From: Bdellovibrionota bacterium
GTDB lineage: Bacteria; Bdellovibrionota_C; UBA2361
NCBI GenBank assembly: GCA_044352465.1
Contig: JBILDU010000001.1
Span: forward strand, 20,211-84,210
DNA length: 64,000 bases
Direction: 5' to 3'
The notes under the pieces were generated by a model that saw only the letters and a program-made list of their open reading frames with translations, made no database searches and had not been told where the DNA came from. Position 1 is the first letter of the stretch. Each line of letters starts with the position of its first letter. The position numbers and the translations under genes are program-made. This document shows, piece by piece, positions 13,550-55,117 of the stretch.

Positions 13550-13596
13550 TACTCCGACCAAAAAAATCGTGCTCCGCCCCCCGGCGCGGCTCTCCG

Positions 13597-14370
13597 GTGG
13601 ACGGACTTCTTCGACGGAGCGTTAATCCCGTGCCCGCAATAATGCGATCGGTCACTTTGTTCGAAGACGACGCGCTTTTCATTCTTCATAAACCAGCCAA
13701 CGCGCATTCGGTTGCACATAGCGAAGGGGAAGGGGAGCCTTCAGTCGCGGCCGATCTTTTGGCAGCATCGCCGCAACTACGCGAGGTTGCCGATCGCCCC
13801 GGCGATGCCGGCCTCGTTAATCGACTCGATTTCGGAACCTCAGGGATCTTAATCGGGGCCAAGAGCCGCGCAGTTTGGGAGGCTCTCCGCAGCGATATTC
13901 AGTCAGGGGAGATAAAGAAAAGGTACCTCGCCGTTCTTGAGGGAATCGCGCCATTATCTCGAACCATAGAGAATTTCATCGGCTCACCCTACCGACGGGC
14001 GCAAAAAGTCCGCGTCTACGACGATCTACCCCGGGATGGGCGCGCGCTCCCGGCAATCTCCATTTTTCGCCTACGTGAGCCTCACGCTGCCCAAAATATT
14101 TCGCTCGTTGAGGTAGAGGCACCGACGGCCCGTCGCCATCAGATCAGGGTTCACGCTCGCTCGATCGGCCACCCCCTCGTGGGTGATACCCTCTACGGTG
14201 CCACCCGCTCCCTCGGGGATATTTTTACTGAACAGGCGAACGGCTTTTGTCTCCATGCGTATAGCGTGGAACTTACCCACCCACTTCACCGACGCACTCT
14301 ATCGATCGTCGATCCAGCCCCGGAGTATCTCTCCGCGGTCTTTAGCGAAAAAGCTCTGCGGGTGGGATGA
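13597..14370 (+). CDS. RluA-family pseudouridine synthase
   Basis: Motifs FILHKPANAHSV and VNRLDFGTSGILIGAKS (catalytic Asp region). The start may instead be the ATG at 13642. Confidence 0.8.
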   Translation: MDGLLRRSVNPVPAIMRSVTLFEDDALFILHKPANAHSVAHSEGEGEPSVAADLLAASPQLREVADRPGDAGLVNRLDFGTSGILIGAKSRAVWEALRSDIQSGEIKKRYLAVLEGIAPLSRTIENFIGSPYRRAQKVRVYDDLPRDGRALPAISIFRLREPHAAQNISLVEVEAPTARRHQIRVHARSIGHPLVGDTLYGATRSLGDIFTEQANGFCLHAYSVELTHPLHRRTLSIVDPAPEYLSAVFSEKALRVG

Positions 14371-17459: not shown

Positions 17460-18173
17460 TCAGTGATGACCCTCTTCCTCGTGCTGGGTCGCCAAGAGGA
17501 TATACACCATCGTCAGCGTGGTAAAGATAAACGCCTGCATAAAGCAGACGAACGTACCGAGCGCCAAGAACAGAATCGGTGCCACCGGCCCGAGCATATT
17601 GGTGAATATCTCGAGCACCATGTGATCGGCGGTGATGTTCCAATAAAGACGGAGGTTGAGCGTTAATATACGGAGGCAGGTACTAAATATCTCGAGCGGA
17701 AAGAAGAACCACGCCAAAGCCGCTATCGGGCCGGCGAAATGCTTCAGATAACCCCACAGGCCGTTCTCCTTTACCCCCCAAGCGTTGAAGTAAAAGAAAA
17801 CCACGAAAGCCATACCGACGTTAATCCAAACGGTCGTCGTGATAGCTGGCATTCCCGGCACGAGGCCAAGGAAATTAGAGAGGAGAAGGAAAAAAAACAC
17901 GCTCGCCGTAAATGGAACGTGCTGACGCTTGTCCTTTCCGAGAACCGAGTCGTGATACTTCACGAAGGCCTCCACGATAAAGTCGACCGCCCCAAAGAAG
18001 GAGAGCTTTTTATCGGGCACGATCGCACTTTCTACCCCGTGCGGTGTACTCAATCGCGCGGTCAGCGCTTTTCCGAGAACAACCAACCCTCCTCCCAGGA
18101 GCAGGGCTGCCCCAAACTTTTGGAGGTTTGGATCAGAGGTAAGGTGGGTGAAGTAGTTATAGCCTGAAGCCAT
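17460..18173 (-). CDS. atpB: F0F1 ATP synthase subunit a
   Basis: 237 aa, multi-TM, with the conserved C-terminal LRLYWNITADHM (stator Arg region, as LRLFGN). Confidence 0.9.
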   Translation of the reverse strand: MASGYNYFTHLTSDPNLQKFGAALLLGGGLVVLGKALTARLSTPHGVESAIVPDKKLSFFGAVDFIVEAFVKYHDSVLGKDKRQHVPFTASVFFFLLLSNFLGLVPGMPAITTTVWINVGMAFVVFFYFNAWGVKENGLWGYLKHFAGPIAALAWFFFPLEIFSTCLRILTLNLRLYWNITADHMVLEIFTNMLGPVAPILFLALGTFVCFMQAFIFTTLTMVYILLATQHEEEGHH

Positions 18174-18280
18174 CTGCCGCTCGGTTAACTTTGACGGTCA
18201 AAGTTGTATATAATTCCAGGCTGGAAAGCAAACCCCGAGAGGCGATTTAGATCGGTATTTTCTCGAATGTCCTCACGGGG

Positions 18281-18730
18281 CTAACGATCTTCTGCCGGGG
18301 AGGACGACGGCCCCGGGGAGGGGTTGCCCCCAGACCGTTCCGGCACCTCTCCAGCATCATCCACCGGGAGACTCTTTTGCCCCTCCCGGACCGCGTATTG
18401 AAAGCCCGCCGGCAAGAAGGCGAAGAGCCCAAGCAGGGCGGCCAGGATCTCTCCGCTCGTCGCGCGCCCCATCAGCCACAGAGCGCTGAGGATCGCCACA
18501 AATTTTACGGGGAACCAAACAGCGAATCGGCGCACTCCGCCCACAGATCCAAAAAGGGCGCTGACTGCGATGGTGTAAAACTTCACCCCGATGACCGCGT
18601 AAACCACACCGCAGGCGACTGCGAGAGGTTCGACTGTCCCACCAGCGTAGCGAGCTATCGCGGCCACTCCAATGAACGAGAGCCCCCACCACAACGTGCC
18701 CCGTATGATCTCGATCGGTTCGTGTATCAT
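18281..18730 (-). CDS. atpI: ATP synthase protein I-like small membrane protein
   Basis: 149 aa, 4 predicted TM segments, immediately upstream of atpB in the same orientation. Assignment is by position; sequence similarity is weak. Confidence 0.5.
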   Translation of the reverse strand: MIHEPIEIIRGTLWWGLSFIGVAAIARYAGGTVEPLAVACGVVYAVIGVKFYTIAVSALFGSVGGVRRFAVWFPVKFVAILSALWLMGRATSGEILAALLGLFAFLPAGFQYAVREGQKSLPVDDAGEVPERSGGNPSPGPSSSPAEDR

Positions 18731-19288
18731 AAAAATTCACGTTGATAATTTAGGTGGTTAGGCCCCTCACGGTTAGCGATCCGTTCCAGAACCGTTGCCC
18801 CGAAAAATTTTTTGTTTAACTGATTTATACTTCGAAAGAAAATTTCGCGCGAAAGAATTGATTTCATTTATGATCACGCCGCCGATTTTTTTTTTCCAAA
18901 ATGCGCTTGTAAAAAGATCGTACGCCGCTATAAATCTCAAACTCCGCTGACGACGATCATGTGGGTTTGCGTTTCGTGTTACTCGTTGCTCTTAAAAATC
19001 TGAACAAAAGTAGCGCGCCCAAAAAATCCGATCAGATCAGTGGAACTAGGTGGCGCCATACCTTCTTAGCAGTATCGAAGGTTCGGTCGCAGTCGATAAG
19101 ACGGTTTTTTTCTCTCGGTGGTTTTTTTACCTCGATCGTTTCATGCCTCACCGCAGCGTTCCGTACCCGAAAGGTCAACCCGGGTGCACCGCTCAAAACG
19201 GCCGACAGCGTCTCCTCGAGGTCTTTAGGTGAACGGCTCACCCTTTTAACTGCCGCTTCTTTGATTTAACTGTTTTGGTTGCGTTGTT

Positions 19289-20710
19289 ATGCGTGATATC
19301 CGCGCCGATTCTGCTGTTGTGCCGTTGAGCGACTCTTGGAGAAACAGTCTCTCGGCTCTTAAAGCGGAACTCGACCCCCAGGTATTCGCTGCCTATATCA
19401 AGCCATTGGAATTACAAGGGTTTGATCGGGAAACTGGCGAATTCTCGGTGAGCGCCCCCTCCCGGTTGGTGTGTAATCACGTTGACCAGAATTTCAAAAC
19501 ACAGCTCTGCTCAGCCTTGGCGCAAGAACTCGGAATGAGCAGCACTACCTTGAAGCTCGCGGTGCGCTCCGCGGTTGAGCCAACCTCATCGATCGATCGG
19601 GAATCGCGCAACGTGGTGGTTCGTAAGGTGAAGCCCCGTCTCCGTCCTCGCCATGACAGCGCCGCGCTCCCCCGAGTTGCGGGAGGCTTTTTTCAGCCGA
19701 ACCCCAAGTACACGTTCGCTTCTTTCGTGGTTGGTAATAGCAATCAATTCTGCCACGCTGCTGCTTTGCGTGTGGCCGAGAATCCTGGTCAAAGCTACAA
19801 CCCACTCTTCATCTACGGTGGGGTCGGTCTCGGGAAGACTCACCTGCTTCATGCGATCGGAAACGCCGTCTTAGAGAAGAATCCGCACGCCCGCGTCCTC
19901 TACATGTCGTCCGAGACGTTCACCAACGAACTGATTCAAGCCCTCCGTCATGCGAAGATGGATGAGTTCAAAAACAAAATGCGCAGTATCGAGGTGCTCC
20001 TCATCGATGATATTCAGTTTATGTGCGGCAAAGAGCGGACCCAAGAGGAGTTCTTTCACACCTTCAACGCTCTCTATAGCGCCAAACATCAAATCGTCAT
20101 CACCTCGGATAAGATTCCCCAAGACATCCCGGGGATCGAAGAACGGTTACAAACTCGTTTCTCTTGGGGTCTCACCGCCGATATTCAAGCCCCTGATTTC
20201 GAAACGCGGGTCGCGATACTCAACCGCAAAGCGAACCTCGAGTCGTTCGCTGTGCCCGAAACCGTTTCGCACTATATCGCCGAGAACATCTCTTCGAACG
20301 TTCGCGAGCTTGAGGGCGCGCTGACTCGAGTTCATGCGATGAGCAGCTTACAAAGCAAACCGATTACCCTCGAACTCACCCAGACAGCTCTGAGGCCGCT
20401 TTTTCAACCAAAAACGGTGGCTCTCTCAGTTGATGATATTAAGCGTGCGGTAGCGGATCACTTTGGCATCAAGGTCAGTGAGATGGTCTCGAAGCGGCGC
20501 ACCAAGAATCTTTCATTCCCCCGCCACATCGCCATGTATTTATGTCGTAAGCATACCACCTACTCTTATCCGGAGATCGGGGCACATTTCGGCGGACGTG
20601 ATCATTCGAGCGTTATCCACGCTGCAAACGTCGTGTCGACCAAAGTAGGCAGTGATCAACAAGTCAAAGCGCTCGTCGCTGAAATAGAGCGGCGCTTACT
20701 GTCGCACTAA
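19289..20710 (+). CDS. dnaA: Chromosomal replication initiator DnaA
   Basis: AAA+ Walker A GGVGLGKTHLLHAIGN, sensor motifs, and a C-terminal DNA-binding domain (HTTYSYPEIGAHFGGRDHSSVIHA). Confidence 0.97.
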   Translation: MRDIRADSAVVPLSDSWRNSLSALKAELDPQVFAAYIKPLELQGFDRETGEFSVSAPSRLVCNHVDQNFKTQLCSALAQELGMSSTTLKLAVRSAVEPTSSIDRESRNVVVRKVKPRLRPRHDSAALPRVAGGFFQPNPKYTFASFVVGNSNQFCHAAALRVAENPGQSYNPLFIYGGVGLGKTHLLHAIGNAVLEKNPHARVLYMSSETFTNELIQALRHAKMDEFKNKMRSIEVLLIDDIQFMCGKERTQEEFFHTFNALYSAKHQIVITSDKIPQDIPGIEERLQTRFSWGLTADIQAPDFETRVAILNRKANLESFAVPETVSHYIAENISSNVRELEGALTRVHAMSSLQSKPITLELTQTALRPLFQPKTVALSVDDIKRAVADHFGIKVSEMVSKRRTKNLSFPRHIAMYLCRKHTTYSYPEIGAHFGGRDHSSVIHAANVVSTKVGSDQQVKALVAEIERRLLSH

Positions 20711-21092
20711 TCTCGCTCCGACCAGCGGGGGACCGGCCCCTGCACCTAGTTTTGTGCAAAGCGTCGATAAGTCATTAATCATACAGGTAAATTTCCGGCA
20801 AAACCTGTGAATATCTTCTGGTTATCCTGACAGAGATCATAGCGGCGAGTAGGCCATTTTTAGAGGTGTGGAAACTATCCCGAACGACCAACGATTTGCT
20901 GACAAATTATCCACACCACTTGTGGTGAAACACAAAGAGGTTAGCGGTGTTTTTCACTGCTCAGACGTTGCCCTACTATTACTACTAATTTAATTCTATT
21001 TATTTGTAGATAAATTATCCGACCTTGTTAGAATCGTTAGCCCACATCGTGATGATGAGATGATGGGCGGTGCATTGGTGGTGAGGAAAACT
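20711..21092. promoter_or_regulatory. Candidate oriC: DnaA-box cluster plus AT-rich DNA unwinding element between dnaA and dnaN
   Basis: Perfect TTATCCACA at 20907-20915, and TGTGAATAT at 20806-20814 with 1 mismatch on the reverse strand. Further 2-mismatch boxes are TTATCCTGA, TGTGGAAAC, TGTGGTGAA and TTATCCGAC. An AT-rich tract lies at 20975-21015 (ctactattactactaatttaattctatttatttgtagataaatt). Confidence 0.75.
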
Positions 21093-22220
21093 ATGGACAT
21101 TACGATATCAAAAGCTGAGCTCAATCGAGCGCTGTACCTTACGCAGAGCATCGTTGAGAGAAAAACAACGATGCCGATCTTGGTGAACGTCCTCATCTCA
21201 GCGTCGGATAGAAAACTTAAAATCGCCGCAACCGATCTCGAGATTACCGCGATGGCAACAGCGGCCGCCGAGGTGCGCTCTCCGGGCAGCACCACTGTAA
21301 ATGCAAAAGTATTTGCGGATATCGTACGTGAACTTCCCGATGGTGAAGTAACCGTGAAGTTGGGTGAAGGGGAACGGGTCGAGATCACCGCTAAGAACTC
21401 AAAGCTTAAGATGATCGGTGTGACGGCTGAGGAGTATCCCAGTCTTTCCGGTCTGGCGTTTACCCCCAAAAGTAAACTCCCAGCCCCCCAATTATTGGAA
21501 ATGATTGAGAAGACCCTGTATGCCGTCTCATTTGATGAGACTCGCTACAACCTTAACGGTGTCTGCTTCGAGCTTACGGGTGGAAAGGGGAAGAAAGATC
21601 CGCAGAGTCTCCGGATGGTCGCCACCGACGGTCACCGCTTGGCGCTCGTTACCCGTCCGGTGAGTGGGATGTCGTTTACCGAAAGGGTCATTGTGCCCCG
21701 CAAAGGCCTCACAGAGGTCAAAAAGATAGTTGAGGGTGCGGGTGATAAGGATATCGGTTTTGATATCGTGGACGGCTTCCTGGTGGTCGAATCAGGCGAT
21801 GCTAAAATAGCTATGCGACTCATCGACGGAGAGTTTCCGGATTACAACCAGGTTCTACCCAAGGATAAGGGCACGGTCGCAACGCTTAACGCTGGCGAGT
21901 TCGCCCAGGCGCTTCGGCGGGTAGTCCTCATGGTGAGTGACAAGAACAAGTGCGTCAAACTTGATTTCGCTAAATCGAGCCTCCGCATTTCAAGCTCCTC
22001 CCCGGAACTTGGTGAGGCGAGCGAGGAGCTTGCGGTGAGCTACGACGGCAAGCCGTTAAGCGTTGGTTTCAATGCGAAGTACCTCCTTGATATCGCACTA
22101 TCGATACAAGAGTCCCAAAACCTCGCGATGGAGCTGCATGGTGAACTTGGACCGGGGCGTTGTTACGCCGAGGGGGATGAGGCGTACGAGGCGATCGTCA
22201 TGCCGATGCGGCTAGCCTAA
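21093..22220 (+). CDS. dnaN: DNA polymerase III beta sliding clamp
   Basis: MDITISKAELNRALYLTQSIVERKTTMPILVNVLI is typical of the DnaN N-terminus. Start at 21093 has GAGGAAAA upstream. Product ~375 aa. Confidence 0.95.
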   Translation: MDITISKAELNRALYLTQSIVERKTTMPILVNVLISASDRKLKIAATDLEITAMATAAAEVRSPGSTTVNAKVFADIVRELPDGEVTVKLGEGERVEITAKNSKLKMIGVTAEEYPSLSGLAFTPKSKLPAPQLLEMIEKTLYAVSFDETRYNLNGVCFELTGGKGKKDPQSLRMVATDGHRLALVTRPVSGMSFTERVIVPRKGLTEVKKIVEGAGDKDIGFDIVDGFLVVESGDAKIAMRLIDGEFPDYNQVLPKDKGTVATLNAGEFAQALRRVVLMVSDKNKCVKLDFAKSSLRISSSSPELGEASEELAVSYDGKPLSVGFNAKYLLDIALSIQESQNLAMELHGELGPGRCYAEGDEAYEAIVMPMRLA

Positions 22221-22264
22221 AAATGGCGCGATTCAAGTGGTAGTGAGGAGGTAGCGGAGAAGAC

Positions 22265-23365
22265 GTGTACATCGAATGGCTCAAGCTCTTTCATTTTAGA
22301 AATCTTGAGAACTCAACCCGACACTTTTCTCCGGGCCTCAACATCATCTGTGGTCAAAACGGGCAGGGAAAGACGAACCTTATCGAGGCGATAAACCTCC
22401 TTTGCACCGGCCGTTCATTTCGAACCCAAACGGTAGCGGACCTGGTGCGATGGGGCGAAACGGGCGCGTCAGCATTTGCACTTATCAAAGGTGCATTAAC
22501 CGATGAGGAGCTTGGAGTTTCGATTGAACAGGGAACTCGCAGCGCCTTTGTGAACGGCAACAAGGTGCGCTCCTTGACCGAATTTGTGGGGCGGCTTTTA
22601 TGCGTCACCTTTTCACCGATCGACCTTGCGATCGTTAAAGGCAGCCCTCAGGTGCGGCGTAAATTCCTCGATCGCCACATCGTTGATTTCGAGCCTGCTC
22701 TTATGGGGGCGATCCTTGATTATCATCGCGCCCTTAAAAGTAAGGCGGCCTTACTCAAGGGTGGGGACGCCGACACATCGGCGCTTGAGCCGTGGAATCA
22801 GCTCATGGCGACCGCCGCAGCTTCGATACTCCGATCCCGCCGAGCGTTACTCCGGGGGCTGGAGGAAGCCGCAAATGAGTATTACCGCACGCTAGCTCAC
22901 CACGATGGTCAGGTGAGCTTAAAACTTGAGAGCGATATCGAGGGCGAATCTCCATCGGCTGAGGATATTTTTACCCAACTGATGGACGTTCAGGGGCGTG
23001 AGCGCCGCTACAAGTCACCGGTCCGTGGCCCCCACCGGGATGACGTGCTTATCTCCCTTGATGGGCACGACGCTCGGGCATTCGCCTCACAGGGACAGGC
23101 TCGCAGCATCGTTCTGGCTTTAAAACTTGGCGTGATTGCGCTCTTGGAGTCACATCGAAAAGAGGCGCCGATAGTGCTTCTTGATGATGTCGATTCCGAA
23201 CTCGATCAATCGCGGTGCGACGCGTTGTTTGAACTTATCTATCACACGAAACGACAGGTCTTTGTGACCGGGACAGATCGTGACCGCGCGGCGCGGCGTC
23301 GTCCCGGGGAATGCTCCGAGTGGGAGATTCGGGGTGGGGGTATCAACGTCGCTAGCGATCCCTAA
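22265..23365 (+). CDS. recF: DNA replication and repair protein RecF
   Basis: LKLFHFRNLE...NIICGQNGQGKTNLIEAI (Walker A) and C-terminal signature and Walker B motifs. GTG start. Confidence 0.95.
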   Translation: MYIEWLKLFHFRNLENSTRHFSPGLNIICGQNGQGKTNLIEAINLLCTGRSFRTQTVADLVRWGETGASAFALIKGALTDEELGVSIEQGTRSAFVNGNKVRSLTEFVGRLLCVTFSPIDLAIVKGSPQVRRKFLDRHIVDFEPALMGAILDYHRALKSKAALLKGGDADTSALEPWNQLMATAAASILRSRRALLRGLEEAANEYYRTLAHHDGQVSLKLESDIEGESPSAEDIFTQLMDVQGRERRYKSPVRGPHRDDVLISLDGHDARAFASQGQARSIVLALKLGVIALLESHRKEAPIVLLDDVDSELDQSRCDALFELIYHTKRQVFVTGTDRDRAARRRPGECSEWEIRGGGINVASDP

Positions 23366-26143: not shown

Positions 26144-26663
26144 TTTTTCGAAGTGATTCTTGCAGACGTTTTCCCCTGTACCGGGGCAACTTTTTGCAGG
26201 GGGCAGAGCGAGGAGCGATCCATCCTCCCACTCTAAATAAATACCTCCATCTGCATCGAGTAGCCCCGGTGCAGAGAACAGGTGCAGAGAACAACGCGAA
26301 TTCTTTGGCACGAGAGTGTGCTGCGATTAACGTTGCGTCTGTCGGATTCTCCACTTGCACATATTTCTTGAATAAGTCCGGAAAAACCGCGCGAGCCTCG
26401 TTTGTCAGGTGCAACAAACCAGAAGCAGGGAAGGGGTTTGGCCCCTCCGCTAAAAGATACAGCGTCGCGCGCTCTGGGGCTCCGCGTATCGATACCCACC
26501 GACGAGCTTTCCGGCAATCCCCGATGGGGGCAACCACCAAGGTTACCGGTTCCCGATAGCGAGCCGCGTTCGCCGATCCGCTACCGATACTGCCTCACAA
26601 ATAGGTGTATCAGTATGTTACGGGGCTTGTCCCTCACGGTAAAATTGTGAGGCGGCATCTAAT

Positions 26664-29591
26664 TTGCTCCCCTCTAGAATCTTAATAGCGATGGAGCGAC
26701 GAACTCGTACGATTGTTACCGCCTTCAGCGCCCTTTTGCTCGGGGTTATGCCGCTCTGTGCGGTGAGGGGCGAAACGACAGTGACCGTAGAAAGAAGCCG
26801 CTTCGCCGATACTACCTTCTACGAATCCGGGGCACCCGCGACAACTTTGGACGGGAGCCTCGAGAACCTAGCTTTTGCGATGGGTCGGGAACATTTCCGA
26901 CTCGATCCGCTCACCATTCTCCTTGGCTCACTCATCACGACTCAGCACAATTCGGCGCTCAATCGGCAGGCCATCGACGCGTTCTTAAATACGAGCGATC
27001 CGAAGTACTACAACGGCGTGGCCGGATTCAAACTCCCCGTCCACCGAGTAGACGCCGATGGCACGATCGAAGCACCTCTCGATGGCCCGACAACCCTCGA
27101 AGGAATCTCGAACATGCTGCGCTGGTTCGGTGTGGACGCTTGGGCGCAGGATAATCTGAATACGCTCGCCCCCCAAAACAAACGGATCATCACCCGGTGG
27201 ATCGAGGGGGCGCAAGCAGCAGCCCGAGAACTCGAGGAGGATTTTTACAGCCGCAATCCGAGTCTCCGTAGCACCAACATCGTCAAATACTTTTGCAACC
27301 TCCAACTCCACGATGTGCTGCGGGGCTATGCTTGGATTAGCCAGAGCTACGATTTCGGCGGAATTACCGGGATGCTCAAGAGCATCCCGACATGGCTTCG
27401 ATCGGAAAATCTCGGGGCTCCGCTCTCCGTGGGGATGAAGACGGGCGACGCACTCGGGGTGCCCCCTGAGTTTCCTACTTTCACTCAACCGGAGCACCTC
27501 GCGCAGGGTGCATCAAACGGCGCCGCTTTTACGTTTATGCCGACCGATCGTCCCGGTGCTCGGGAGTGCGTCGTGGCCGGCGAGCCGCACCAACCCTCGA
27601 CGTGGGGCACACCCGGTGGCCCCCTCACCCAGGTGAAGGTCTTTCGCGCCTACGCCAGACGGAGCAAGGATCAGCTTATCCCCTTCGTCGTCGCGGCATA
27701 CCCAACCCTCGCCGGTTTCATCGGGTTACAATTTACTCCGCACAGCGCCACGAGCGGCACCGCAGATCCGATCGGTGGGGGGATCTTATTTTTTGCGGAG
27801 ACGAATGGCGCGGATTATTTTTACGATGGGGCATGGCGGCCGCTGAGGCGATCGCCCCTAACGCTTACCCGAAACGGCGCTCCGGTGACCATAGACCGCT
27901 TTGAGGTGCCCGGATTCGGCAAAGTCTTCGCTCTCGTGCAGGAGCCGAGTACGGGTAGGACTTACGTCCTTTCCTGGCGTCAGAAATCCCCATCAAATTT
28001 CCTCAACGGCTTTTGGTCGCGGCTTCGCGCCGGGCTTGCAAATGATGGCGCAGCCTTTATAGCAGCGGTCGAAGACGGGCTACCCTTTTACGGAGAAGCG
28101 GGTTGCGCTCCGCGTCGTCCGAGCGATACCGTCGCGGCTCCGCGGACCGCGTACTACGCCATGAACCAGGGCAAAATCGACCGCATCAACGAACCGAACA
28201 CCATCAACCCGCTCACGGTAAACGCCGTCCAGCCGGGCGCAGCCAAAGTAGGACTCGATCCATCCACGGTCTGTAGTGGACAGCTGTGGACAAGCTCCGA
28301 TAACGGAAACTTTAAGTCGGGTTGCCCGGGACGACCAGAGCGCCCCTACTATCAAGATCCTGGCCTGCAGACCGACCGGCAGTTCGCCGTGCGGCGTTTT
28401 GTTACCGAGCACCTTCAATCGCCGATCTCCCGAGCTGAGGTGTTTCGCTTCGCCACGAGCACCGATTCTGTTGGGCTCGCCCGCTTTATCGATGTGCTCG
28501 TCGCCGCGGTCGATGGGTATGCGGAGAGTCGCCTTACGCCGGATCAATTCGCCTTCGTCTCGGCGGTGGCCAACGTTCTTCGGCTTAACACCACCGGTGC
28601 TATCTTTGATACCCCCGAGCAGCTCCTGGTGATGTACCTCGCTGATGAGCTATTCAATCCGATCGTCGCTGGTGCTATCGCCATGCCCGCTCCGATTCGA
28701 GAGTATCTCTTCAAACCGGAGACGACGCGTGCGGAGATGATCGCCGGGTTCGATGACACAGCCGCCACGTTCCTTATCGATGCGATCATCGCCGGGACAA
28801 ACTTTGTCGCGGAGCGGTGTTTAGGCGAAGGAAATATGTCGTACCATCCAGCGATGTCGCTGACGATCTCCGGCACGCAGGTCGCAGCTCAGTTTGGCGG
28901 ACCGGGATTTGGGGGAAGAAGCTCCGGCATTGTGCGTTTTGGGCGCGATCTCGGAGGGAACAAAACGTGCAAGATCGAGCTTGTGGCATCCTCACCGTTT
29001 AAGTTCGTTGCGACCGAGGAGTCGTTGCGTTACCTCACGTTCGGACCACCGGTAAGCCCTTTGACGTTCGAGGATGGACTTTATCAGACAGCGAACGCTG
29101 CGTGGGGCGGTCTGTGGGCACATCACAACAGCCGTGGGGATGGTTCGGGGGGCATCGAATCGTATCGGGAGTTCCGCCTCGCTCCGGTAAGCCGGCCGCC
29201 GAGCGACCCCGATACGCTGCGAACGTGGAAGATCTCTGTGCCCTCGCAGAGGGCGCTCGTTCTCACTGGGAGGAGCATACGCTCAACGGTCTACTCAATT
29301 CGCTCGGCCGTTCGCCGGCTCAGGGCACCTCATGCGGTAAATAACGAGCGGGAGCGGCGCGCTCAGGCCAAAGCGCGTAAGACGATCACGACCAAACGAT
29401 TCGTCCTCGTCAAGCTCGGAGCGAACTACTCCAAAATCGCTACTCCGACCACCGCATCTGCGGCGCTACGCTCCCAGCTACAATCGTTAAACCGCCTCTT
29501 GCGAGGCCTCGGCGACGAGCCGAACGCCGCGACGGTGAAACGCCGCAAAGGGGCGTTGAAGCTCTGCGACGCTCTCCTAAAGAGATTGTAG
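26664..29591 (+). CDS. Large secreted hypothetical protein (975 aa), basic C-terminal tail
   Basis: The N-terminus has a signal-like hydrophobic segment (TIVTAFSALLLGVMPLCAVRG). I recognise no catalytic motifs. The C-terminus is KR-rich. Confidence 0.6.
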   Translation: MLPSRILIAMERRTRTIVTAFSALLLGVMPLCAVRGETTVTVERSRFADTTFYESGAPATTLDGSLENLAFAMGREHFRLDPLTILLGSLITTQHNSALNRQAIDAFLNTSDPKYYNGVAGFKLPVHRVDADGTIEAPLDGPTTLEGISNMLRWFGVDAWAQDNLNTLAPQNKRIITRWIEGAQAAARELEEDFYSRNPSLRSTNIVKYFCNLQLHDVLRGYAWISQSYDFGGITGMLKSIPTWLRSENLGAPLSVGMKTGDALGVPPEFPTFTQPEHLAQGASNGAAFTFMPTDRPGARECVVAGEPHQPSTWGTPGGPLTQVKVFRAYARRSKDQLIPFVVAAYPTLAGFIGLQFTPHSATSGTADPIGGGILFFAETNGADYFYDGAWRPLRRSPLTLTRNGAPVTIDRFEVPGFGKVFALVQEPSTGRTYVLSWRQKSPSNFLNGFWSRLRAGLANDGAAFIAAVEDGLPFYGEAGCAPRRPSDTVAAPRTAYYAMNQGKIDRINEPNTINPLTVNAVQPGAAKVGLDPSTVCSGQLWTSSDNGNFKSGCPGRPERPYYQDPGLQTDRQFAVRRFVTEHLQSPISRAEVFRFATSTDSVGLARFIDVLVAAVDGYAESRLTPDQFAFVSAVANVLRLNTTGAIFDTPEQLLVMYLADELFNPIVAGAIAMPAPIREYLFKPETTRAEMIAGFDDTAATFLIDAIIAGTNFVAERCLGEGNMSYHPAMSLTISGTQVAAQFGGPGFGGRSSGIVRFGRDLGGNKTCKIELVASSPFKFVATEESLRYLTFGPPVSPLTFEDGLYQTANAAWGGLWAHHNSRGDGSGGIESYREFRLAPVSRPPSDPDTLRTWKISVPSQRALVLTGRSIRSTVYSIRSAVRRLRAPHAVNNERERRAQAKARKTITTKRFVLVKLGANYSKIATPTTASAALRSQLQSLNRLLRGLGDEPNAATVKRRKGALKLCDALLKRL

Positions 29592-29600
29592 GTTTTGTGT

Positions 29601-30007
29601 CGAATCACCCCCAGCGACCTATGGAGGGCTCGACTCTGTCGAGCCGTGTTTGAATCACCGGTGGTACTACAGCCGGACAGAGTCCGGCCCTCCAGTCCTT
29701 GCTCGAATCACCTGTGGTACCCTGGCCGGATGGAATCCGACCCTCCAGAATCGAATCACTCGCAGAGACCTGTGGAGGGCTCGACTCTGTCGAGCCGCGC
29801 TTGAATCACCGGTGGTACTACAGCCGGACAGAGTTCGGCCCTCCAGTCCTTGCTCGAATCACCTGTGGTGCCCTGGCCGGATGGAATCCGACCCTCCAGA
29901 ATCGAATCACTCGCAGAGACCTGTGGAGGGCTCGACTCTGTCGAGCCTTGGTCGTGTCACCTCAGGCGCTTCGGCCGGATAGAATCCAGCCCTCCAGACA
30001 AGAATCG
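29601..30007. repeat. Higher-order tandem repeat: 151-bp unit (x2.7) made of three ~50-bp palindrome-containing modules
   Basis: Module starts (C/T)GAATCAC fall at 29601, 29651, 29704, 29752, 29802, 29855 and 29903, giving a 151-bp period. Each module carries a 7-8 bp-arm, 3-nt-loop palindrome: GGCTCGACtctGTCGAGCC, GCCGGACagaGTCCGGC, CCGGATggaATCCGA. Most also carry CCCTCCAG. A degenerate final module spans 29951-30007. Confidence 0.85.
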
Positions 30008-30634
30008 CTAGTTTTCGATCCTGACCGGCTGAGTACCGGAGCAGTTGATCGGCTCGATGAGTGTGTAGGTCGTTTCGCAGCTGCAGCCCGGAATACTTGC
30101 GCTACCGCTCAGCGCTCCCGGCTCATCGCAACTTGCGTTAGGTGGAAAAACCGTCACAGAGGCTGCGGTCTGCATGCAGAGCTCCTTTATTCCTTCGCAC
30201 GAAGGTTCAACAGCAGGCTCGTTGAACGTGCAGATCTTGACTGCGAGAGCGCGCCAGTCACACCCATACGCACTTGCGGTGATCGTTCGAAGCCCAGCCT
30301 GCTTGAGCCATAACTTTTTCGACTCTCGATAAAATGCGTTAAGCTCCCCTTGAATGATGTCCGCGGAGCTCTCACACAGCCCGAAGAAACTCCCGATATC
30401 CGCCACTGGAAGTAGATGGGTGGGTAGTTGAGCCATAAGTGCGGCGCAGATCTGCTCGGTAGAGGCGGTCCCGCCCGCAGGTGGTAGGCCGATTACGTCG
30501 TCGGTTCGAAAGCTATCGAAGCAGGTTGTCGGTTGATTGAGCCGCAGGTGTTTGTGGTGAGTACGGGGGCATTCGCGGTTTTCGGAAACTCGGTTGAGGA
30601 TGCGATAGTGGTCGGGCGCCACGAGGGAATTCAT
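30008..30634 (-). CDS. Cys-rich hypothetical protein (12 Cys, no signal peptide)
   Basis: 208-aa ORF; the minus-strand reading frame has GC-rich third positions. Its C-terminus abuts the repeat array. No family recognised. Confidence 0.4.
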   Translation of the reverse strand: MNSLVAPDHYRILNRVSENRECPRTHHKHLRLNQPTTCFDSFRTDDVIGLPPAGGTASTEQICAALMAQLPTHLLPVADIGSFFGLCESSADIIQGELNAFYRESKKLWLKQAGLRTITASAYGCDWRALAVKICTFNEPAVEPSCEGIKELCMQTAASVTVFPPNASCDEPGALSGSASIPGCSCETTYTLIEPINCSGTQPVRIEN

Positions 30635-31057
30635 CTGGCTGACGTAGCGCTTAACTTTCCCTCAAGAGCGCCAGAGGTGATCGAGCTCATGAAAGATATT
30701 CAACGCGCCTCTCCTCAATTTTTCGAGGTCGTAAATGAGAGTTCGTGGACGTCGGCGAAATCTGGAGGCCAGTCGCGCGATAGTAGCGCCGAGTTCTTTG
30801 CCTCGACCCTCCATGCGCTTCTCGATGATAGGGGTATCGCGGAGTTGAGGAGTTACAACGCTGAGCTTCTTCGGCGGTGCGCGGAAACGTTTTTAGGGGT
30901 GTTAGCGAGCCCACCCCACGCCCTGCCGCCAACGGCACCGGTCATCGCGGCGCTCAGGGGCTTGGCAGAGGGGGAAGGGCGGTAAGGGCGTATATTTGAC
31001 CGAGTGGTGAAGTTCAGGTACGTTACGGGGCTCTACGGCTTAGATTAAAGGTGTTTT

Positions 31058-31177
31058 ATGGCTTCTCCAACCAAAGTGACCGAGACCCGTCGCGCTCATA
31101 AGCGCTCGAAATTGCTTAAGAAGCGCAACAAAGAAGCGCGCCTTCGTTTAGCCAAAGAAGGCAAGGCGAAGAAGTAG
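31058..31177 (+). CDS. Small basic protein (39 aa), ribosomal-protein-like composition
   Basis: ATG at 31058 with AGGTG 7 bp upstream; product MASPTKVTETRRAHKRSKLLKKRNKEARLRLAKEGKAKK. A strong terminator lies 69 bp downstream. Below the ORF-track cutoff. Confidence 0.45.
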   Translation: MASPTKVTETRRAHKRSKLLKKRNKEARLRLAKEGKAKK

Positions 31178-31245
31178 TCTTGCACCCTACAGGCGAACCG
31201 CAGAGCTGCCTTGAGTTGCTCTTCGGTCCGGCTGGGTGGCAGATA

Positions 31246-31275
31246 ATGGCTCCCTTAGCGGAGCCATTTTTTTTG
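31246..31275 (+). terminator. Rho-independent terminator
   Basis: ATGGCTCC(31246-53), loop cttagc, GGAGCCAT(31260-67), then T8 (31268-75). Confidence 0.65.
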
Positions 31276-31315
31276 CCCCCGCGGGCGCTGAGAGAGCCCT
31301 AGCAAGGAGTAGAGA

Positions 31316-35655: not shown

Positions 35656-35804
35656 TACTTCGTCTTAAGGGTTTTTTCACCAGAGAGCATCTCCGGGGGG
35701 CGGACTATCCGGCTTTTTGTCTCGTTCGCCCTCGGACTCGTCCTCCTCTGGGGGGCCTCAGGACTCGATGTGTGGCGCCGAACGATACGAATAAATCGTA
35801 GAAC

Positions 35805-45256: not shown

Positions 45257-48200
45257 CTACTTCGAGCCCGCTGAAGTGGTGCCGCGCGGTCGCTGAGGGG
45301 CGCGTTTTCTCATTGCCGTGGCGCGCTTGCTCGGCGCTGCGGGACTACCGGCCTTCTCCCCTCGTAAAAGGGTTCCCCACGGGGTCGCCGCGAGAGCGAG
45401 TTCGAGCGGTGAGCCTGAAAAGACGACCTGACCGCCGTGTGCGCCCGCACCGGGACCAAATTCGATGATGTGATCAGCCGCGCGAATCATATCCGCATCG
45501 TGTTCGATGACGAGCACGGTATGGCCACGCTCAACCAAGGCACGGAGGGTTCGAACGAGCTTTTCCACGTCGGCTTTGTGGAGTCCGGTCGTCGGTTCGT
45601 CGAGTATATAAATGGTGTGGCCCCGTCGCTCGGCACTTAACTCTGCAACGAGCTTGAGTCGCTGGCTCTCCCCTCCGGAGAGGGTGGGAGAGCTCTGGCC
45701 CAGCGTCAGATAGCCCAGCCCGAGCTCCACCGCTTGGCGGATCGGCTCGATAATCTTGCGGTGGTGAGTAAACTTTGCTCGCGCTTCCTCAAAGGTGAGT
45801 GCGAGTACGTCGCTGATGGTAAGGTCAGCGAACCGAACCGTCTCAGCTTCGTCGTTAAAGCGGCGACCGCGGCACGCTTCGCATTCAACCCACGCATCGG
45901 CGAGGAAGTTCATCTCGACCTTGAGTTGGCCCTGACCTTTACATTCCGTGCACCGACCTTTTCCCGTATTATAGGAGAAGAAACCGGTCCCCCAGCCGCG
46001 TGCCTTGGCTTCGATAGTCCCCGCGAAGACCGAGCGAATCGTATCCCAGATGCCCAGATATGAGGCTGGAGTCGAACGCGAATTGATGCCGATCGGTTTT
46101 TGGTCGACCTGCAGAATCCGGGCGATTTCGAGAGAGGAGGTGATGACGGTATCTCCTCGAGTCCAGCGGCTTTTCTCCTCATCTCCAAGGGTGAGAGTGT
46201 CCGCAATAATACCGTGGACGAAGGAGCTTTTCCCCGCCCCCGAGACTCCGGCAACAACAACGAGCTGTTGGAGGGGCAGAGAGAGCGCGAGGTTCGCGAT
46301 GTTGTGCTTCGATCCCCCATGAATTTGAAGCGCGGCCCCGCTTCGTGTGCTCTCCCGTGGTGCCGGGGTATTGCCCTCAGAGCGAAGTGCTTGCGCTGTC
46401 ACGCTGGCGTCGCTCAGAAGAAAACCGTCCCGTGGTCCTGCAAAGACGATCTCGCCACCGTTCTTTCCACCACCTGGCCCGACATCGATAACGTAATCCG
46501 CCGACCGTATGGCATCCCCGTCGTGTTCGATCATGATGACCGCGTTTCCGCGGTCGCGCAGGGCGCGGAGGCGGCTGAGCACTTTGACATTATCGAGTGG
46601 ATGCAGTCCCACACTCGGCTCATCGAATATGTAAATCACACCCGTCAAAGGGGAGCCCATCGCGGTTCCGAGGCGTAGCCGTTGAAGCTCTCCGCCCGAG
46701 AGCGTCGTACACTCTCGCTCGAGCGTAATCTCTCCGAGCCCTAGCGCCTCGAGGGTCTCAATCTTTGAATCAAGCTCGCTGATAATGGGGAGGGCGATCG
46801 TTCTTTCGCGCGGGGAAAAGTCGAGCGCCTCAAGGAAGCTCCGGAGGCCGTTCGGAGTAAGCTGGGACGCTGCATAGATATTACGCCCGCAAAGTTGCAA
46901 GTGTCGCCCGAGGGTCTGAATGCGCGCCCCGCCGCATTCGGTGCAGACGGCGTCACCCCGCCCCTTGCCCGTGCCCTCACACCGCGGACACCGCCCGCGG
47001 GGCGAATTGAATGAGAGATCTTCCGGATCCGGCTTGAAAAAACCCCGTTGGCACACGGGGCAGGTTCGCTCAGTGCTGTAGACCGAATCCGCGCCGTCAG
47101 CTGACACGATGAGGGTTCCGCTGCCGAGACTGAGCGCCTGTTCGACCCCGGCGACGATGAAATCGGGGGTGACCTGATTCGGATTAAACTGCGCCACGAG
47201 GTATTCAATCGTGTGAGGCTTGCTCTTCTCGAGCCCCGCACCGATGTTCAGACTTGAAGTCTTAAAAAGGACACCATCAACGCGGACATGCGATATCTCG
47301 GCATCGATTGCACGCTGGAGTACCGCCTTGTGATTTCCCTTTTTGCCTTTAATTATCGGGGCGAATATTCGTACCGACTTCGCCACGATCTTCTTGAGGA
47401 GGTGCGATATCTCGAGGGGAGCGAGCGCGGCGATCCGTTCAGTCGGGTGATCGGGACAGTATTGGGTTGCGGTCTTGGCGTAGAGAAGGCGGAGGAAGTT
47501 ATAGATCTCCGACATCGTCGCCACCGTTGACAGACGGGACGGTTGAAATGTGTGCTGATAGACGCAGATTGTGGGAGCGATGTTGGTGAGGCTATCGATC
47601 TCCGGTCGTTTTAACTCTTTGATGTATTGTCGAGCATACGGTGAGAGGCAGTCGAGATAGCGGCGCTGTCCCTCCGCGTAGATGATATCCTTGGCGATAC
47701 TCGACTTCCCTGAGCCAGAGACCCCGGTAAAGACGACTACTTGGTCGAGTGGGATATCGAGCGAAACGTTTTTGAGGTTGTGCTCCCGAGCTCCCCGAAT
47801 AGAGAGATGGGACGGTGATGGTACCGCCGGACGGGGTGTTTGTGGTTGAGCGGTACGCTTCGACGTGGCGAGAAACTCACGCAAGGCTCGAGCCGTGTAT
47901 GAGGTCCGGCTTGCCGCCGCAGTCTGAAAATCTGCCGGGGGGCCGGCGAGCAGGACCGCGCCACCTCCTGCTCCCCCCTCGGGACCTAGGTCGATAATCC
48001 AGTCAGCGGCACCGATGAGGAGGAGGTTGTGTTCGATACACAGTACCGCATGCCCCGCCGTGCGGAGAAAGTGAAAGAGCTCAATCAGGCGCTCGACATC
48101 GCGAACGTGGAGACCGGTGGTGGGCTCATCGAAGATGAACAGATTGCGGCCCCGCCGACCGTGTTCGAGATACGGGACGATCTTGAGCCGCTGGGCCTCG

Positions 48201-50749
48201 CCACCCGAGAGCTCGCTGAGCGAGTGCCCGAGGGTGAGATGACCAAGGCCCAGCCGCGAGAGATTATGGGCGGCTCGGGCAACGGTGCTGTCTTCAGGGA
48301 AAAATCGGTGGCACTCATCGACCGACATGCCGAGAAAGTCGTCGGCGTTCTTCCCCCGATAGGTGACCTCAAGAACCGGAAGCTGGAAGCGTTTGCCCTG
48401 GCAAACCTCGCAAACGATGTATACGTCGCTCAGAAACTGCATGTCCTCGCGAATATGCCCTGCTCCCTTACACGCCGCACACCGCCCGGCATCAACGTTG
48501 AAGGAGAACGTACTTTTCGTAAATGCCCGCATCGTCGCCCCGTCGCTGGCGGCGAGGAGTTCGCGGATCGTATCCCAAATGCCGGTATAAGTGGCGATAT
48601 TCGCGCGCGGGCTCTTCGTCAGCGGCGATTGATCGACGAGAAGGATCTCGTCGAGATGCTCGAACCCAGAGACCGCATTCTCGCCTTCGGCAGACGGTTC
48701 GCCCCTTTGAAATCGTTCGTACGCTGCCATGACGACTTCGTGGACGAGGGTGCTCTTTCCGCTTCCCGAGACCCCGGTGAGGCAGACAAATGCATCGAGG
48801 GGGACCGTTACCGAGATGTTCTTCAGATTTCGGACAGTAGCTCGCGCTATCGTCAAAGCTCGGTCGGTAGCCATGAAGGGGGCGGGGCGGGGTAACTTCC
48901 AGGAGATCCCCGGCCACAACGCCGCGCTCCCGTTAAAGGTAACCTCTCCGCCCTGCTGCCCGGCCGCTGGTCCCATCTCAATGATGTGGTCAGCTGACTC
49001 GATACAGTCAAGGTCGTGTTCAACGACGAGAAGGCTGTTGCCCCTTCGTTGAAGGCGAATCATCGCCTCGATCAGGCGCTCGGTGTCGCGGGCGTGGAGT
49101 CCAACCGAAGGCTCATCAAGAACAAAGTGTGTCGAGATGAGGTCGCTTCCCAAAGCCGTGGTGAGGTTCACCCGTTGGGTTTCACCACCGGAGAGGGTGC
49201 GCGATTGACGATCCAGAGTGATATAGGGAAGACCGAGGCTCACGAGGTAGTCGAGTCGTGCTATCACTGCAGCCAGAACATCGCGCACCTCGTTCGGGTA
49301 CCTCCGTCGACGTCGTAGCGTCTCTTCAAGATCGCGCATCCACGTCAGGAGCTCACCGACCGGCATACGCCAGATATCGGGCAATGTCCTGCCGTTGATT
49401 CGGTAGGTGAGTCCCTCGCGCTTCAATCGAGTTCCCGCACATTCCGGGCAGAGAAATTGGCCACGGTATTTAGCGAGGAATACCCGGACATGCATTTTGT
49501 AGGCCTTGCGCTCAAGTCGCTTGAACCAAGGTTCAACCCCCCGGTACTCCCGTGAGGTATGGGTGAAGATTTGGTCGTGCTGCTCGGGTGTGAGCGTGCG
49601 CCATGGACGATCGATGGGAATCCCGTGGGTGCGACAGAATCCTAATAGTCGGCGTCTTTCGACTCGACCTGCCTTCCCCGCCCAACAGTCGAGGGCATCC
49701 TCCTCGATTGAGAGGAGTGGGTTTGGGACGCAGCGCTTACGATCCACCCTCAGGACGTGGCCGAAACCCTTGCACTCAGCGCACGCCCCAAGAGGGTGAT
49801 TGAAGGAGAAAAGAGAGGGCTTCGGCGTTCCAATGGCGACGTGTCCCCCGGGGCAGACGAATGAACTATGGTAATCGGCGTGAAAGTGTCGCTCGCCCGG
49901 CGTTCGGGTGGGGGGACCAAAAGTACTGCCTCGAATAAACGGTCGGAACCCTCGGGGGGTCACATCGATGACGGTGCAACTCCCCCCGCTCAACGTAAAG
50001 CATTGCTCGACCGATTCGCGGAGTCGCTTTGAGTTTAAGCTTCCGCTCTTCATACGATCGACGATGATGACGAGCTCGGAGATATGGCGAAGTCGCTCGG
50101 GTGGCGTCTCCTCGAGAAGCTCAATTGCTCCCGTCGTATCGTCGAAGTATCGCCCAAACCCCAGAGTCTTGAGCCGCTCGATCTCGAGTTCCCGCGTTTT
50201 CGGAGTAAAGCTTACCCGTGCCCCGATAAGGAGTGTGGGGCTCTGGCGGAGCTTTTGCAGTTCGAGGACATGTTCGGTGAGTCGGGTGGGAGTCCAACGC
50301 GTGAAGGCGATTTCGCAGTTCGGGCACACCGGTTCGGCGACCGCGCCCCACAGGATCTTGAGGTAGTCGTTGATATTGGTCATCGATCCTACGGTTGAGC
50401 GAGAGCTCAATACGCGTGTGCGCTGCTCGATGGCGATCGCTGGGCGAACGTTATCGATACGCTCGACGGCCGGTCGTTTGACCTTATCAAAGAATTGGCG
50501 GGTGTAAGGGGAGAAAGTTTCAATATAGCGGCGTTGGCCCTCAGCATACACCGTATCGAAAGCCAGCGACGATTTTCCCGATCCGGAAATGCCGGTCACT
50601 ACCGTGAAGGCGTCGTGAGGGATGTCGAGAGAAACCCCCTTAAGGTTGTGCTCGGTGGCCTGAATGATATGGAGAGATTTATGTTTCACCGGGCGCGTGG
50701 GCGGTTGGTAATGGCTAAAAGCATAGCTGTTCACCCGCATCAGAAGCAA
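45257..50749 (-). CDS. uvrA: Tandem-duplicated UvrA-like ABC ATPase (two complete UvrA modules in one 1830-aa polypeptide)
   Basis: Four Walker A motifs ([36 protein letters not shown]) and four LSGGE(T/A/L/S)QR signatures. Each half has UvrA-type CxxC zinc modules (e.g. CAACKGAGH...CEVCQGKRF and CTECKGQGQ...CEACRGRRF). Confidence 0.9.
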
Positions 50750-52317: not shown

Positions 52318-52539
52318 GTGAAATCAGACAAGAATCACCGCGAATTTATTGAAGCGTGGCGAAAAGCCGCTCGTGTATTGCACGAGGTGCGGGCGCGGGA
52401 ATTGCCGGAGATCGACACCGTCGCGGGCCTTCAAAGTTTGTTGCCAGCTTTTGCGGCGAGCGTGCGTCAAACTGAGCTGCGCCCCTCCTCGGGTCTTCTG
52501 GAGCAGCAGAGGATTTTTGCCCGACGGATAAGTCGATGA
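52318..52539 (+). CDS. Small hypothetical protein, translationally coupled to downstream nucleotidyltransferase (candidate antitoxin/partner)
   Basis: 73-aa ORF whose TGA overlaps the downstream ATG (ATGA at 52536-52539). No family recognised. Confidence 0.3.
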   Translation: MKSDKNHREFIEAWRKAARVLHEVRARELPEIDTVAGLQSLLPAFAASVRQTELRPSSGLLEQQRIFARRISR

Positions 52540-53102: not shown

Positions 53103-53185
53103 CGAGTGGCGTCAGGTCTTTCGAGTAAAAAGGCAATGGATCCCACTCGAGGACCGGGCTGAAAAAGCCGTCCGGAGGAGACTTC

Positions 53186-54990: not shown

Positions 54991-55117
54991 CCAGCACGGG
55001 TGAGTTTCCCCCGACCGGTTTGGGCCCCCCGGGTTTCGATCAGCTCGATCGTTACCCGGGGGGTTCTGTGGTTTCAAATTATTCGTGTATGCACGTCCTT
55101 TGACGTCGCGGCGGCGA

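Follow-up and report, generated by a model that had tools for sequence, protein, structure and literature searches.

Within a 64,000-nucleotide stretch of contig JBILDU010000001.1 from a Bdellovibrionota bacterium (the window), an array of eight tagged-hairpin modules fills most of the gap between two convergent genes. We think it probable that this array is a cluster of repetitive extragenic palindromic (REP)-like elements, an analogue of the bacterial interspersed mosaic elements (BIMEs) of Escherichia coli, or "grouped REPs". The hairpin structure is under selection; the family of hairpins is dispersed and extragenic in JBJOHD01, a genome of the same broad lineage in which occupied sites can be set beside empty ones; and the 151-bp trimer from which the array is built was duplicated in tandem recently. 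The family itself, whose members carry the tag TGGAGGG, appears to be undescribed. A first-pass annotation of the window had likened the array to a REP/BIME mosaic, and at the level of the family we agree, given the dispersed extragenic units with the same spacers, the covariation in their stems, the stable hairpins, and a placement less than 20 bp from the neighboring stop codons.

The whole array spans positions 29600-29997 (398 bp, 61% GC, not assigned to either strand), as delimited by Tandem Repeats Finder, a repeat search, a unit pattern, a covariance model and base composition, and it covers 398 of the 416 bases (96%) of the convergent intergenic gap. Tandem Repeats Finder reports 29600-29947 with a period of 151, 2.3 copies, 95% matches and a score of 640, and the repeat search places the starts of the 151-bp copies at 29600, 29751 and 29902. 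Copy 1 (29600-29750) holds modules 1-3, and copy 2 (29751-29901), with modules 4-6, is identical to it at 143 of 151 positions. The partial copy 3 (29902-29997), with modules 7-8, matches copy 2 exactly over 46 nt at its start; beyond this point, where the dimer subtype changes, it diverges, and the overall identity is 79/96. Two near-identical 151-bp copies plus a degenerate third, eight modules in all, is what had been seen at first reading, and the repeat searches, the pattern and the covariance model reproduce it with coordinates that move by one base.

The array begins 8-9 nt past the stop of a 975-aa open reading frame (ORF), whose stop codon ends at 29591; this immediate vicinity had been noticed before. 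On the other side, the array had been thought to run up to the stop of a convergent Cys-rich ORF. That ORF has 208 aa and 12 Cys, and the array ends 10 nt before its stop (30008-30010).

Tagged hairpins and their covariation

The repeated unit is an unpaired 7-nt tag, TGGAGGG, immediately followed by a G+C-rich hairpin (stem 8 bp, loop 3 nt). Each unit sits in a module of about 50 bp that includes a semi-conserved linker (..GTGTTTGAATCACCGGTGG..). Successive units start 48-53 bp from one another, the linkers between them (YGAATCAC and CACCGGTGG) are conserved, and a similar spacing of about 50 bp is found at the comparison loci L019, L015 and L007. The first-pass annotation had all modules beginning with (C/T)GAATCAC, which is the case for seven of the eight, module 8 having CGTGTCAC in its place. 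A search of the window with the unit pattern TGGAGGGYNSGAYTCYRTCSRGC returns 8 matches, which are all eight modules at no more than one mismatch, when 0.00 are expected from 100 shuffles. The covariance model also finds 8 matches, scoring 32-46 bits and all within the array; the next best match in the 64 kb scores 11.5 bits.

The inverted arrangement of the modules, on which the architecture hinges, was missed at first reading. Tag and hairpin lie on the plus strand in modules 1, 4 and 7, and on the minus strand in modules 2, 3, 5, 6 and 8, so that the order, with F for forward and R for reverse, is F R R F R R F R. Because units occur in both orientations, they form inverted dimers with the tags outside, plus a singleton. 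The heterodimer is 73 nt long: a unit with a CTCGA stem faces a unit with a CCGGA stem across a 27-nt spacer, CGTGTTTGAATCACCGGTGGTACTACA, and a third unit follows head-to-tail. In copy 1 the heterodimer is made by modules 1 and 2, and the singleton is module 3. The last dimer of the array, modules 7-8, is of a different subtype.

The core of module 1 (29619-29649, plus strand) is TGGAGGG followed by the hairpin GGCTCGAC-TCT-GTCGAGCC, with a covariance model score of 45.5 bits and a folding energy as single-stranded DNA (ssDNA) of -9.0 kcal/mol. Its inverted partner across the 27-nt spacer, module 2 (29667-29697, minus strand), has the tag and the hairpin GCCGGAC-TCT-GTCCGGC (42.3 bits, -8.2 kcal/mol). 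Module 3 (29720-29750, minus strand), the head-to-tail singleton oriented as module 2, carries the tag and GGTCGGAT-TCC-ATCCGGCC with a G.T wobble (38.9 bits, -6.0 kcal/mol). The second copy repeats this series: module 4 (29770-29800, plus strand, 45.1 bits) is like module 1 and folds; module 5 (29818-29848, minus strand, 32.4 bits) resembles module 2 except for a single mutation in its stem, at 29835, which leaves the minus-strand hairpin at a weaker -3.5 kcal/mol; and module 6 (29871-29901, minus strand, 38.9 bits) is like module 3 and folds. Module 7 (29921-29951, plus strand, 45.6 bits) is like modules 1 and 4, and folds. Its inverted partner is module 8 (29969-29999, minus strand), with the tag and the hairpin GGCTGGAT-TCT-ATCCGGCC (43.3 bits, -6.3 kcal/mol).

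Thus seven of the eight hairpins form as drawn when folded as ssDNA, with energies between -6 and -9 kcal/mol, module 5 being the exception, and the expectation of stable hairpins is borne out. The expectation that the palindromes be perfect is borne out in part. It is correct for the GGCTCGAC/GTCGAGCC hairpins and for the first GCCGGAC/GTCCGGC hairpin; it is incorrect for module 5, with its stem mutation, and for CCGGAT..ATCCGA and module 8, both of which contain a wobble that reads G.T on the minus strand and C.A on the plus strand. A preference for one strand based on G.U versus C.A mismatches is suggestive at best and partly forced by the search pattern, and we have not used it. At a larger scale, the 79-nt dimer also folds as one long hairpin (-19.5 kcal/mol, z -4.3), with inverted arms of 26 nt that are 81% complementary and 21 nt apart, and for the whole array the fold is better than that of its shuffles whichever strand is taken (z -4.2 and -5.5).

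Does the structure of the small hairpin covary? We compiled 35 distinct units, with 500 shuffles and slid pairings as controls. In these units, 99.3% of the pair cells are standard pairs. Double-sided switches occur at three stem pairs (CG/UA, GC/CG and UA/CG; 31 cells), which none of the 500 shuffles equals, and the slid controls are 14-47% paired. A pattern search could itself impose some of the pairing, and the four stem pairs that our search pattern leaves unconstrained can be inspected separately. For these four free pairs, the 12 distinct cores from JBJOHD01 include 8 that are fully Watson-Crick, 2 with G.U pairs and 2 with one mismatch, whereas in a negative control, chance matches of the pattern to a NuoL-like coding motif, 6 out of 6 distinct sequences are mismatched. 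The hairpin structure is under selection.

Relatives of the units in other genomes

Using the unit pattern we scanned a collection of 185,579 species genomes, from which the source genome is absent and in which we estimate that about 9 matches would occur by chance. The scan resulted in 52 loci. The metagenome-assembled genome (MAG) JBJOHD01, labelled Pseudomonadota, has 31 exact units on about 20 contigs, and the Bdellovibrionota MAG JBBALZ01 has 16, including a tandem array of 7 copies of 109 bp. When the fetched loci are searched with the covariance model, the counts become 58 units for JBJOHD01, 16 for JBBALZ01 and 15 for the metagenome Ga0247727. The tag TGGAGGG is present in all eight units of the window and in every member of the family that we found. 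Copies elsewhere thus exist in these three sources. Further copies in the same genome, which the first-pass annotation had made a test of the REP idea, are not seen in the 84 kb of the source genome covered, where this cluster is the only one.

The likeness between the window and JBJOHD01 goes beyond the core used in the search. JBJOHD01 follows the same module grammar, TCGAATCAC-N-GACCTG-TGGAGGG, and has the CGTGTTTG.ATCACCGGTGG spacer. The window dimer of modules 7-8 and the JBJOHD01 dimer at L027 are identical at 66 of 73 positions (90%), and at 24 of 27 (89%) in the spacer; the dimer of modules 1-2 shares 64 of 73 positions with the JBJOHD01 dimer at L015. The spacer is outside the search pattern, and shuffled spacers have a mean identity of 47% and a maximum of 60%. 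The aspartyl-tRNA synthetase (AspRS) of JBJOHD01 suggests that this genome, too, is of the Oligoflexia/Bdellovibrionota-like group, and the best named matches of both JBJOHD01 and the window organism are Oligoflexia/Bdellovibrionota MAGs.

In JBJOHD01, the 58 units fall in about 26 clusters, and 24 of 25 clusters are outside ORFs supported by third-codon-position G+C content (GC3). They adjoin genes for AspRS, a LysRS-like protein, DnaE, Kup, arginine decarboxylase, EF-P and ApaG. A tally of the flanking genes based on crude ORF calls gives 4 convergent, 6 tandem and 3 divergent arrangements, with no clear bias. The units appear as singletons, as head-to-tail pairs (with three in tandem at L007) and in variable orders, and some of them have CGTC beside the untagged side of the hairpin. 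Two of the occupied gaps in JBJOHD01, of 379 and 240 bp, include 5 and 3 units; in a relative with the same gene order and an AspRS 84% identical, the corresponding gaps measure 166 and 72 bp and include none. Because the family is dispersed between housekeeping genes in JBJOHD01 and absent at the orthologous sites of the relative, it behaves as non-autonomous, insertion-prone DNA. The ends of the empty sites and target-site duplications could not be mapped at orthologous sites, where the intergenic DNA is too diverged.

The relatives of the window organism are also without units, both those with GyrB 88% and 76% identical and the carriers of orthologues of the 975-aa protein at 72-45% identity. 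In the two former relatives (L126 and L128), the interval from gyrB to a glmU-like gene has no 975-aa gene, no array and no 208-aa gene. Since the array is absent from these relatives, it is not a conserved regulatory feature. The stretch beside gyrB at 26200-31300, made up of the array and its two flanking genes, is variable and specific to the lineage.

Other matches to the pattern need to be separated from the family. One source of chance matches is a conserved coding motif (..LPRAMEGPTPVSA..) in a proton-pumping subunit resembling NuoL, hit at L002, L005, L017, L024, L025, L040, L041, L044 and many metagenome loci. The remaining single matches of the genome scan are due to chance, many of them in this motif, and most matches of the metagenome scan were dropped as either the NuoL-like motif (..MEGPTPVSA..) or repeated coding sequence. 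One such repeat (..CCACTGGAGGGTCGGACTCCATCGAGC..) is found in Ga0307513 and Ga0307517 (L077, L080, L088, L092, L095, L103, L105 and L106), about 85-95% alike across contigs, and it looks like multi-copy coding sequence and not like a hairpin. Viral contigs gave no match to the unit pattern.

Two further genomic sources have variants that carry the tag. In JBBALZ010000080.1 (L034), positions 5264-6001 contain at least 7 tandem copies, interrupted by a run of N, of a 109-bp doublet with the TGGAGGG-tagged hairpin CTGGAC-TCT-GTCCAG, and this doublet is scattered on at least 9 further contigs of that MAG. The contigs of Ga0247727 (L070, L074, L075, L081, L082, L086, L087, L089 and L101) contain a REP-like family with the TGGAGGG tag and inverted pairs TGGAGGGCCCGACTCTGTCGGGCCGA..TTCGGCCCCGCAGAGCGGGGCCCTCCA.

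Alternative explanations and genomic surroundings

How might such an array arise, and what could it do? We propose that the dimer-plus-singleton trimer of 151 bp gave rise to its tandem copy through unequal recombination or replication slippage, the likeliest routes, beside a pre-existing dimer of the other subtype (modules 7-8). By analogy with REPs, the units may be mobilized by a protein that recognizes tag and hairpin on ssDNA, be it a RAYT-like (REP-associated tyrosine transposase) or another enzyme. In E. coli, REPs buffer 3′-to-5′ mRNA decay and damp read-through. Both convergent transcripts at this locus would likewise end in a run of stable stem-loops, which could buffer them against 3′-to-5′ decay and damp read-through from one gene into the other.

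Several observations weigh against reading the array as a REP-like cluster. Multiplicity within a genome is a defining property of REPs, with more than 100 copies per genome according to Nunvar 2010 (PMC2817692), and 20-100 or fewer in many families according to Di Nocera et al. 2013 (PMC3733652); yet only one cluster is found in the ~84 kb of the source genome that are at hand (the window plus 10 kb on each side). Motif searches, a structure-aware scan, the covariance model with filters off and a repeat search all fail to find further units in the window, and the window-wide repeat search does not report any other dispersed repeat family. A cognate RAYT, which the first-pass annotation had brought up, was not found in the window, its extensions or the ~0.6 Mb of related loci, neither as a RAYT/Y1 transposase with phmmer (the E. 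coli RayT against 6,103 six-frame ORFs) nor with Pfam on the ORFs of the window and those flanking clusters; this negative is weak because only ~0.6 Mb were searched, and the MAGs are fragmented. The tag TGGAGGG is neither GTAG nor CGTC, the orientation F R R is not strictly alternating, a U-tract terminator is absent from the array, and the effect on transcripts is argued by analogy only.

Variation in unit number does not help either. The window is 100% identical to about 271,751-335,750 of a 619,777-bp metagenome contig of the Joint Genome Institute (JGI), and this long contig carries 8 units. Three k141 short-read assemblies contain 5-unit forms of the array, in two different hybrid versions. 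Since the flanking DNA of these forms matches the window at 100% and 8 units are present in the long contig, the 5-unit forms are probably the result of assembler collapse and not real variants. The repeat array explains why short-read assemblies of this organism break or collapse at this site.

Could the dimer instead be a MITE (a miniature transposable element with inverted repeats), that is, a 73-nt unit with imperfect terminal inverted repeats (TIRs) of about 26 nt (TGGAGGGC...GCCCTCCA) moved by a classical DDE transposase, with the array resulting from nested or tandem insertions? Its 26-nt inverted arms, 81% complementary with 21 nt between them, its folding as a single long hairpin, and a dispersed distribution with empty sites in relatives would all suit a MITE. 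We consider this unlikely, however, for the units also come as singletons, head-to-tail (the three in tandem at L007) and in variable orders, as REPs do and a fixed TIR-bounded element does not. Moreover, the self-complementarity of each arm is kept by compensatory changes (CTCGA vs. CCGGA stems) at the expense of pairing between the arms, so selection acts on the small hairpins. By reading, no consistent target-site duplication is visible beside isolated dimers, and the flanks examined contain no transposase; no insertion sequence was found. A tandemly reiterated structured RNA, either a small RNA or a cis-regulatory element expressed from the gap, is less probable still, and not on a par with the REP interpretation as had been proposed. 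That the array folds better than shuffles (z -4.2 and -5.5) and has G.U pairs in its stems is what one would expect of such an RNA. But Rfam reports no family in the region even at E <= 10, tRNA-like models included (there, and in the whole window at the gathering threshold, only noise is seen, with miRNA models at E-values 0.6-1.3), there is neither a sigma-70-like promoter nor an intrinsic terminator in or beside the array, and the array is not conserved in close relatives. Besides, since the units are in both orientations, no single strand holds all of them in the same sense.

A role specific to this locus would be another explanation, with the array, ~9 kb from dnaA, serving as a set of protein-binding sites near the origin: iterons, a centromere-like partition site, or sites for gyrase or nucleoid proteins. 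The window does contain the origin region, with dnaA-dnaN-recF-gyrB and the minimum of the cumulative GC skew at 18-22 kb, and the 8 repeats are regularly spaced, with a CACCGGTG palindrome in their conserved linker. We give this very little credence, even though iterons or a centromere had been put forward as equally likely. The family is dispersed elsewhere, its units being found in JBJOHD01 at ~26 intergenic sites beside unrelated housekeeping genes; the array and both of its neighboring genes are missing together in the relatives with GyrB at 88% and 76%; there is no parS match above chance; and the sole perfect DnaA box is at 20907, with the AT-rich stretch lying upstream of dnaA. REPs in E. 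coli bind gyrase and integration host factor (IHF), so that binding of either protein would belong with the REP interpretation and not compete with it. Just as improbable is a one-off local tandem duplication whose similarity to sequences elsewhere is a coincidence, or a degenerate coding sequence. For it speak the presence of one cluster alone in the 84 kb from the source genome and the long ORFs that cross the array at 29650-29982 (plus strand, 110 aa) and 29699-30313 (plus strand, 204 aa). Coincidence does not account for the 90% identity to a JBJOHD01 dimer, unsearched spacer included, or for 31 exact matches in one MAG when ~9 are expected in the whole collection. As for coding, the crossing ORFs are translations of the repeat whose tblastn matches are exclusively other repeat clusters, and the gene callers of five assemblies place no gene in the array. 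Because they match only repeat clusters, these ORFs should not be annotated as genes, and the two can be removed from the annotation as spurious.

Two further classes were also tried and rejected. The array is not of the CRISPR type, as its "spacers" are themselves repeated (the copies are 95% identical) and its units are in both orientations; a weak match to a CRISPR direct repeat (E-value 0.34) is outside the array. An intrinsic terminator, one of the functions that had been suggested, was not found within 29592-30007, where no site combines a G+C hairpin with a U/T tract.

The upstream gene of the convergent pair (26664-29591, plus strand) codes for a 975-aa hypothetical protein without a Pfam domain, or 966 aa if counted from Met10 at 26691, the start that would give it a signal-peptide-like N-terminus. 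Its orthologues, at 72-45% identity, occupy other genomic contexts without units, and homologues of the gene adjoin feoAB in the relatives L059-L063. The downstream gene (30008-30634, minus strand) codes for the 208-aa hypothetical protein with 12 Cys, also without a Pfam domain. For GyrB and the 975-aa protein, the best named relatives are MAGs of Oligoflexia, Bdellovibrionota and "Deltaproteobacteria".

Other genes in the window include topA, mnmG, dnaA, dnaN, recF, gyrB, a gene for a 1830-aa UvrA-like protein, and cox genes. The cumulative GC skew has its minimum at 18-22 kb, and 18170-22300 is likely the replication origin, with dnaA (19289-20710), dnaN, recF and gyrB being consecutive and an AT-rich stretch upstream of dnaA at about 18740-19130. 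A single perfect DnaA box, TTATCCACA, is found at 20907 in the dnaA-dnaN gap, and has no link to the array. In the 1830-aa UvrA-like protein (45257-50749, minus strand) the ABC/UvrA modules are duplicated, and a diverged repeat of 51 nt occurs internally, at 48080 and 49067. A 27-nt inverted match, 85% complementary, relates 13573-13599 to 35678-35704 (TCCGCCCCCCGGCGCGGCTCTCCGGTG and its complement), just downstream of the ends of two unrelated ORFs, and may be a shared 3′-end motif. In the region 52500-57500 (gene tables L113 and L114), one gene resembles toxins of the AbiEii family, and another codes for a 551-aa protein whose C-terminal domain is of the MTES_1575 restriction-endonuclease-like type. 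Several genes of this region, for instance the 551-aa one, are called shorter in the 619,777-bp JGI contig (L114) than in the ENA and Logan assemblies, even though the sequences agree at 100% identity where they overlap the window.

Seen as a cluster of REP-like elements, the array is a "junk/regulatory" repeat of a type common in bacteria, and opens no new kind of biology. What it adds is a lineage, Oligoflexia/Bdellovibrionota-like, for which REP/BIME-type elements have seemingly no earlier description; our literature search gave no report of REPs for Oligoflexia or Bdellovibrionota. And if there is a cognate enzyme, tag plus hairpin would define the substrate of a sequence-specific ssDNA nuclease or transposase.

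Comparison with known repeat systems

The BOX elements of Streptococcus pneumoniae are modular repeats of intergenic DNA in which the number of modules of ~45-50 bp varies, while order and orientation are always A-B(n)-C. The array is alike in its modular build, with no known sequence relationship to BOX.

The closest likeness is with the REP clusters and BIMEs of Enterobacteria and Pseudomonas (PMC3733652, PMC2817692), whose units, too, are extragenic palindromes, short and rich in G+C, typically near the 3′ ends of genes, with a conserved tag left unpaired at one end and compensatory changes in their stems. REPs are palindromes of 20-40 bp with an unpaired tag, mostly found as tag-outside dimers with conserved spacers of 20-100 bp; the dimers are often heterodimers, trimers consist of a dimer and a singleton, and clusters can be reiterated in tandem (Di Nocera et al. 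2013, PMC3733652). The array has this whole repertoire of grouped REPs, that is, tag-outside, head-to-head (HH) heterodimers with a conserved spacer, dimer-plus-singleton trimers and a tandem cluster, at a spacing of ~50 bp. REPs in convergent gaps lie less than 20 bp from both stops (PMC3733652), and the 8-10 nt that separate the array from its two stops are within that range. The regular spacing of the units and the conserved motifs that link them are as in BIMEs. In classical BIMEs, on the other hand, the orientation of the REPs strictly alternates (PMC2817692), unlike the order F R R of the array.

The REPIN-RAYT system (Bertels & Rainey 2011, PMC3116915) is similar in that two inverted REPs and their spacer can form one long hairpin, and in that the elements are dispersed, extragenic, and present or absent between related genomes. 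It differs in having a cognate RAYT (a Y1 HUH transposase, Pfam Y1_Tnp), a single-copy gene that its REPs usually flank, when none is found in the window, its extensions or the ~0.6 Mb of related loci, and in that the two arms of the window dimer carry different stems, which favors folding as a pair of small hairpins rather than as a single long one.

The GTAG and CGTC superfamilies are said to cover most REPs (PMC3733652). The tag of the window is a different one, the 7-mer TGGAGGG, and it is not in the text or supplements of PMC3733652. TGGAGGG-tagged hairpins occur in two Oligoflexia/Bdellovibrionota-like genomes, in JBBALZ01 and in the organism behind the Ga0247727 contigs, and higher-order tandem arrays are seen both in the window (151 bp x 2.3) and in JBBALZ01 (109 bp x 7). 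One could speculate, although we lean against it, that these hairpins are a third REP-like "tag" superfamily beside GTAG and CGTC, extending across several uncultured lineages and mobilized by an enzyme other than a classical RAYT, or else by a RAYT that recognizes a novel tag of 7 nt, with a strong tendency to higher-order tandem amplification as part of the mechanism. The CGTC REPs themselves, such as dRS3 of Neisseria and RPE-4/6 of Rickettsia (PMC3733652), start their stems with A/T pairs and have loops of 4-5 nt, whereas the stems of the window start with G/C, the loop has 3 nt, and CGTC is not conserved in its units. Still, CGTC REPs have no associated transposase, as none was found here in the loci searched, and the two share a stem of 8-9 bp, a short loop, a predominance of HH dimers, and an unpaired tail that ends in CCA, which in the window reads ..CCCTCCA.

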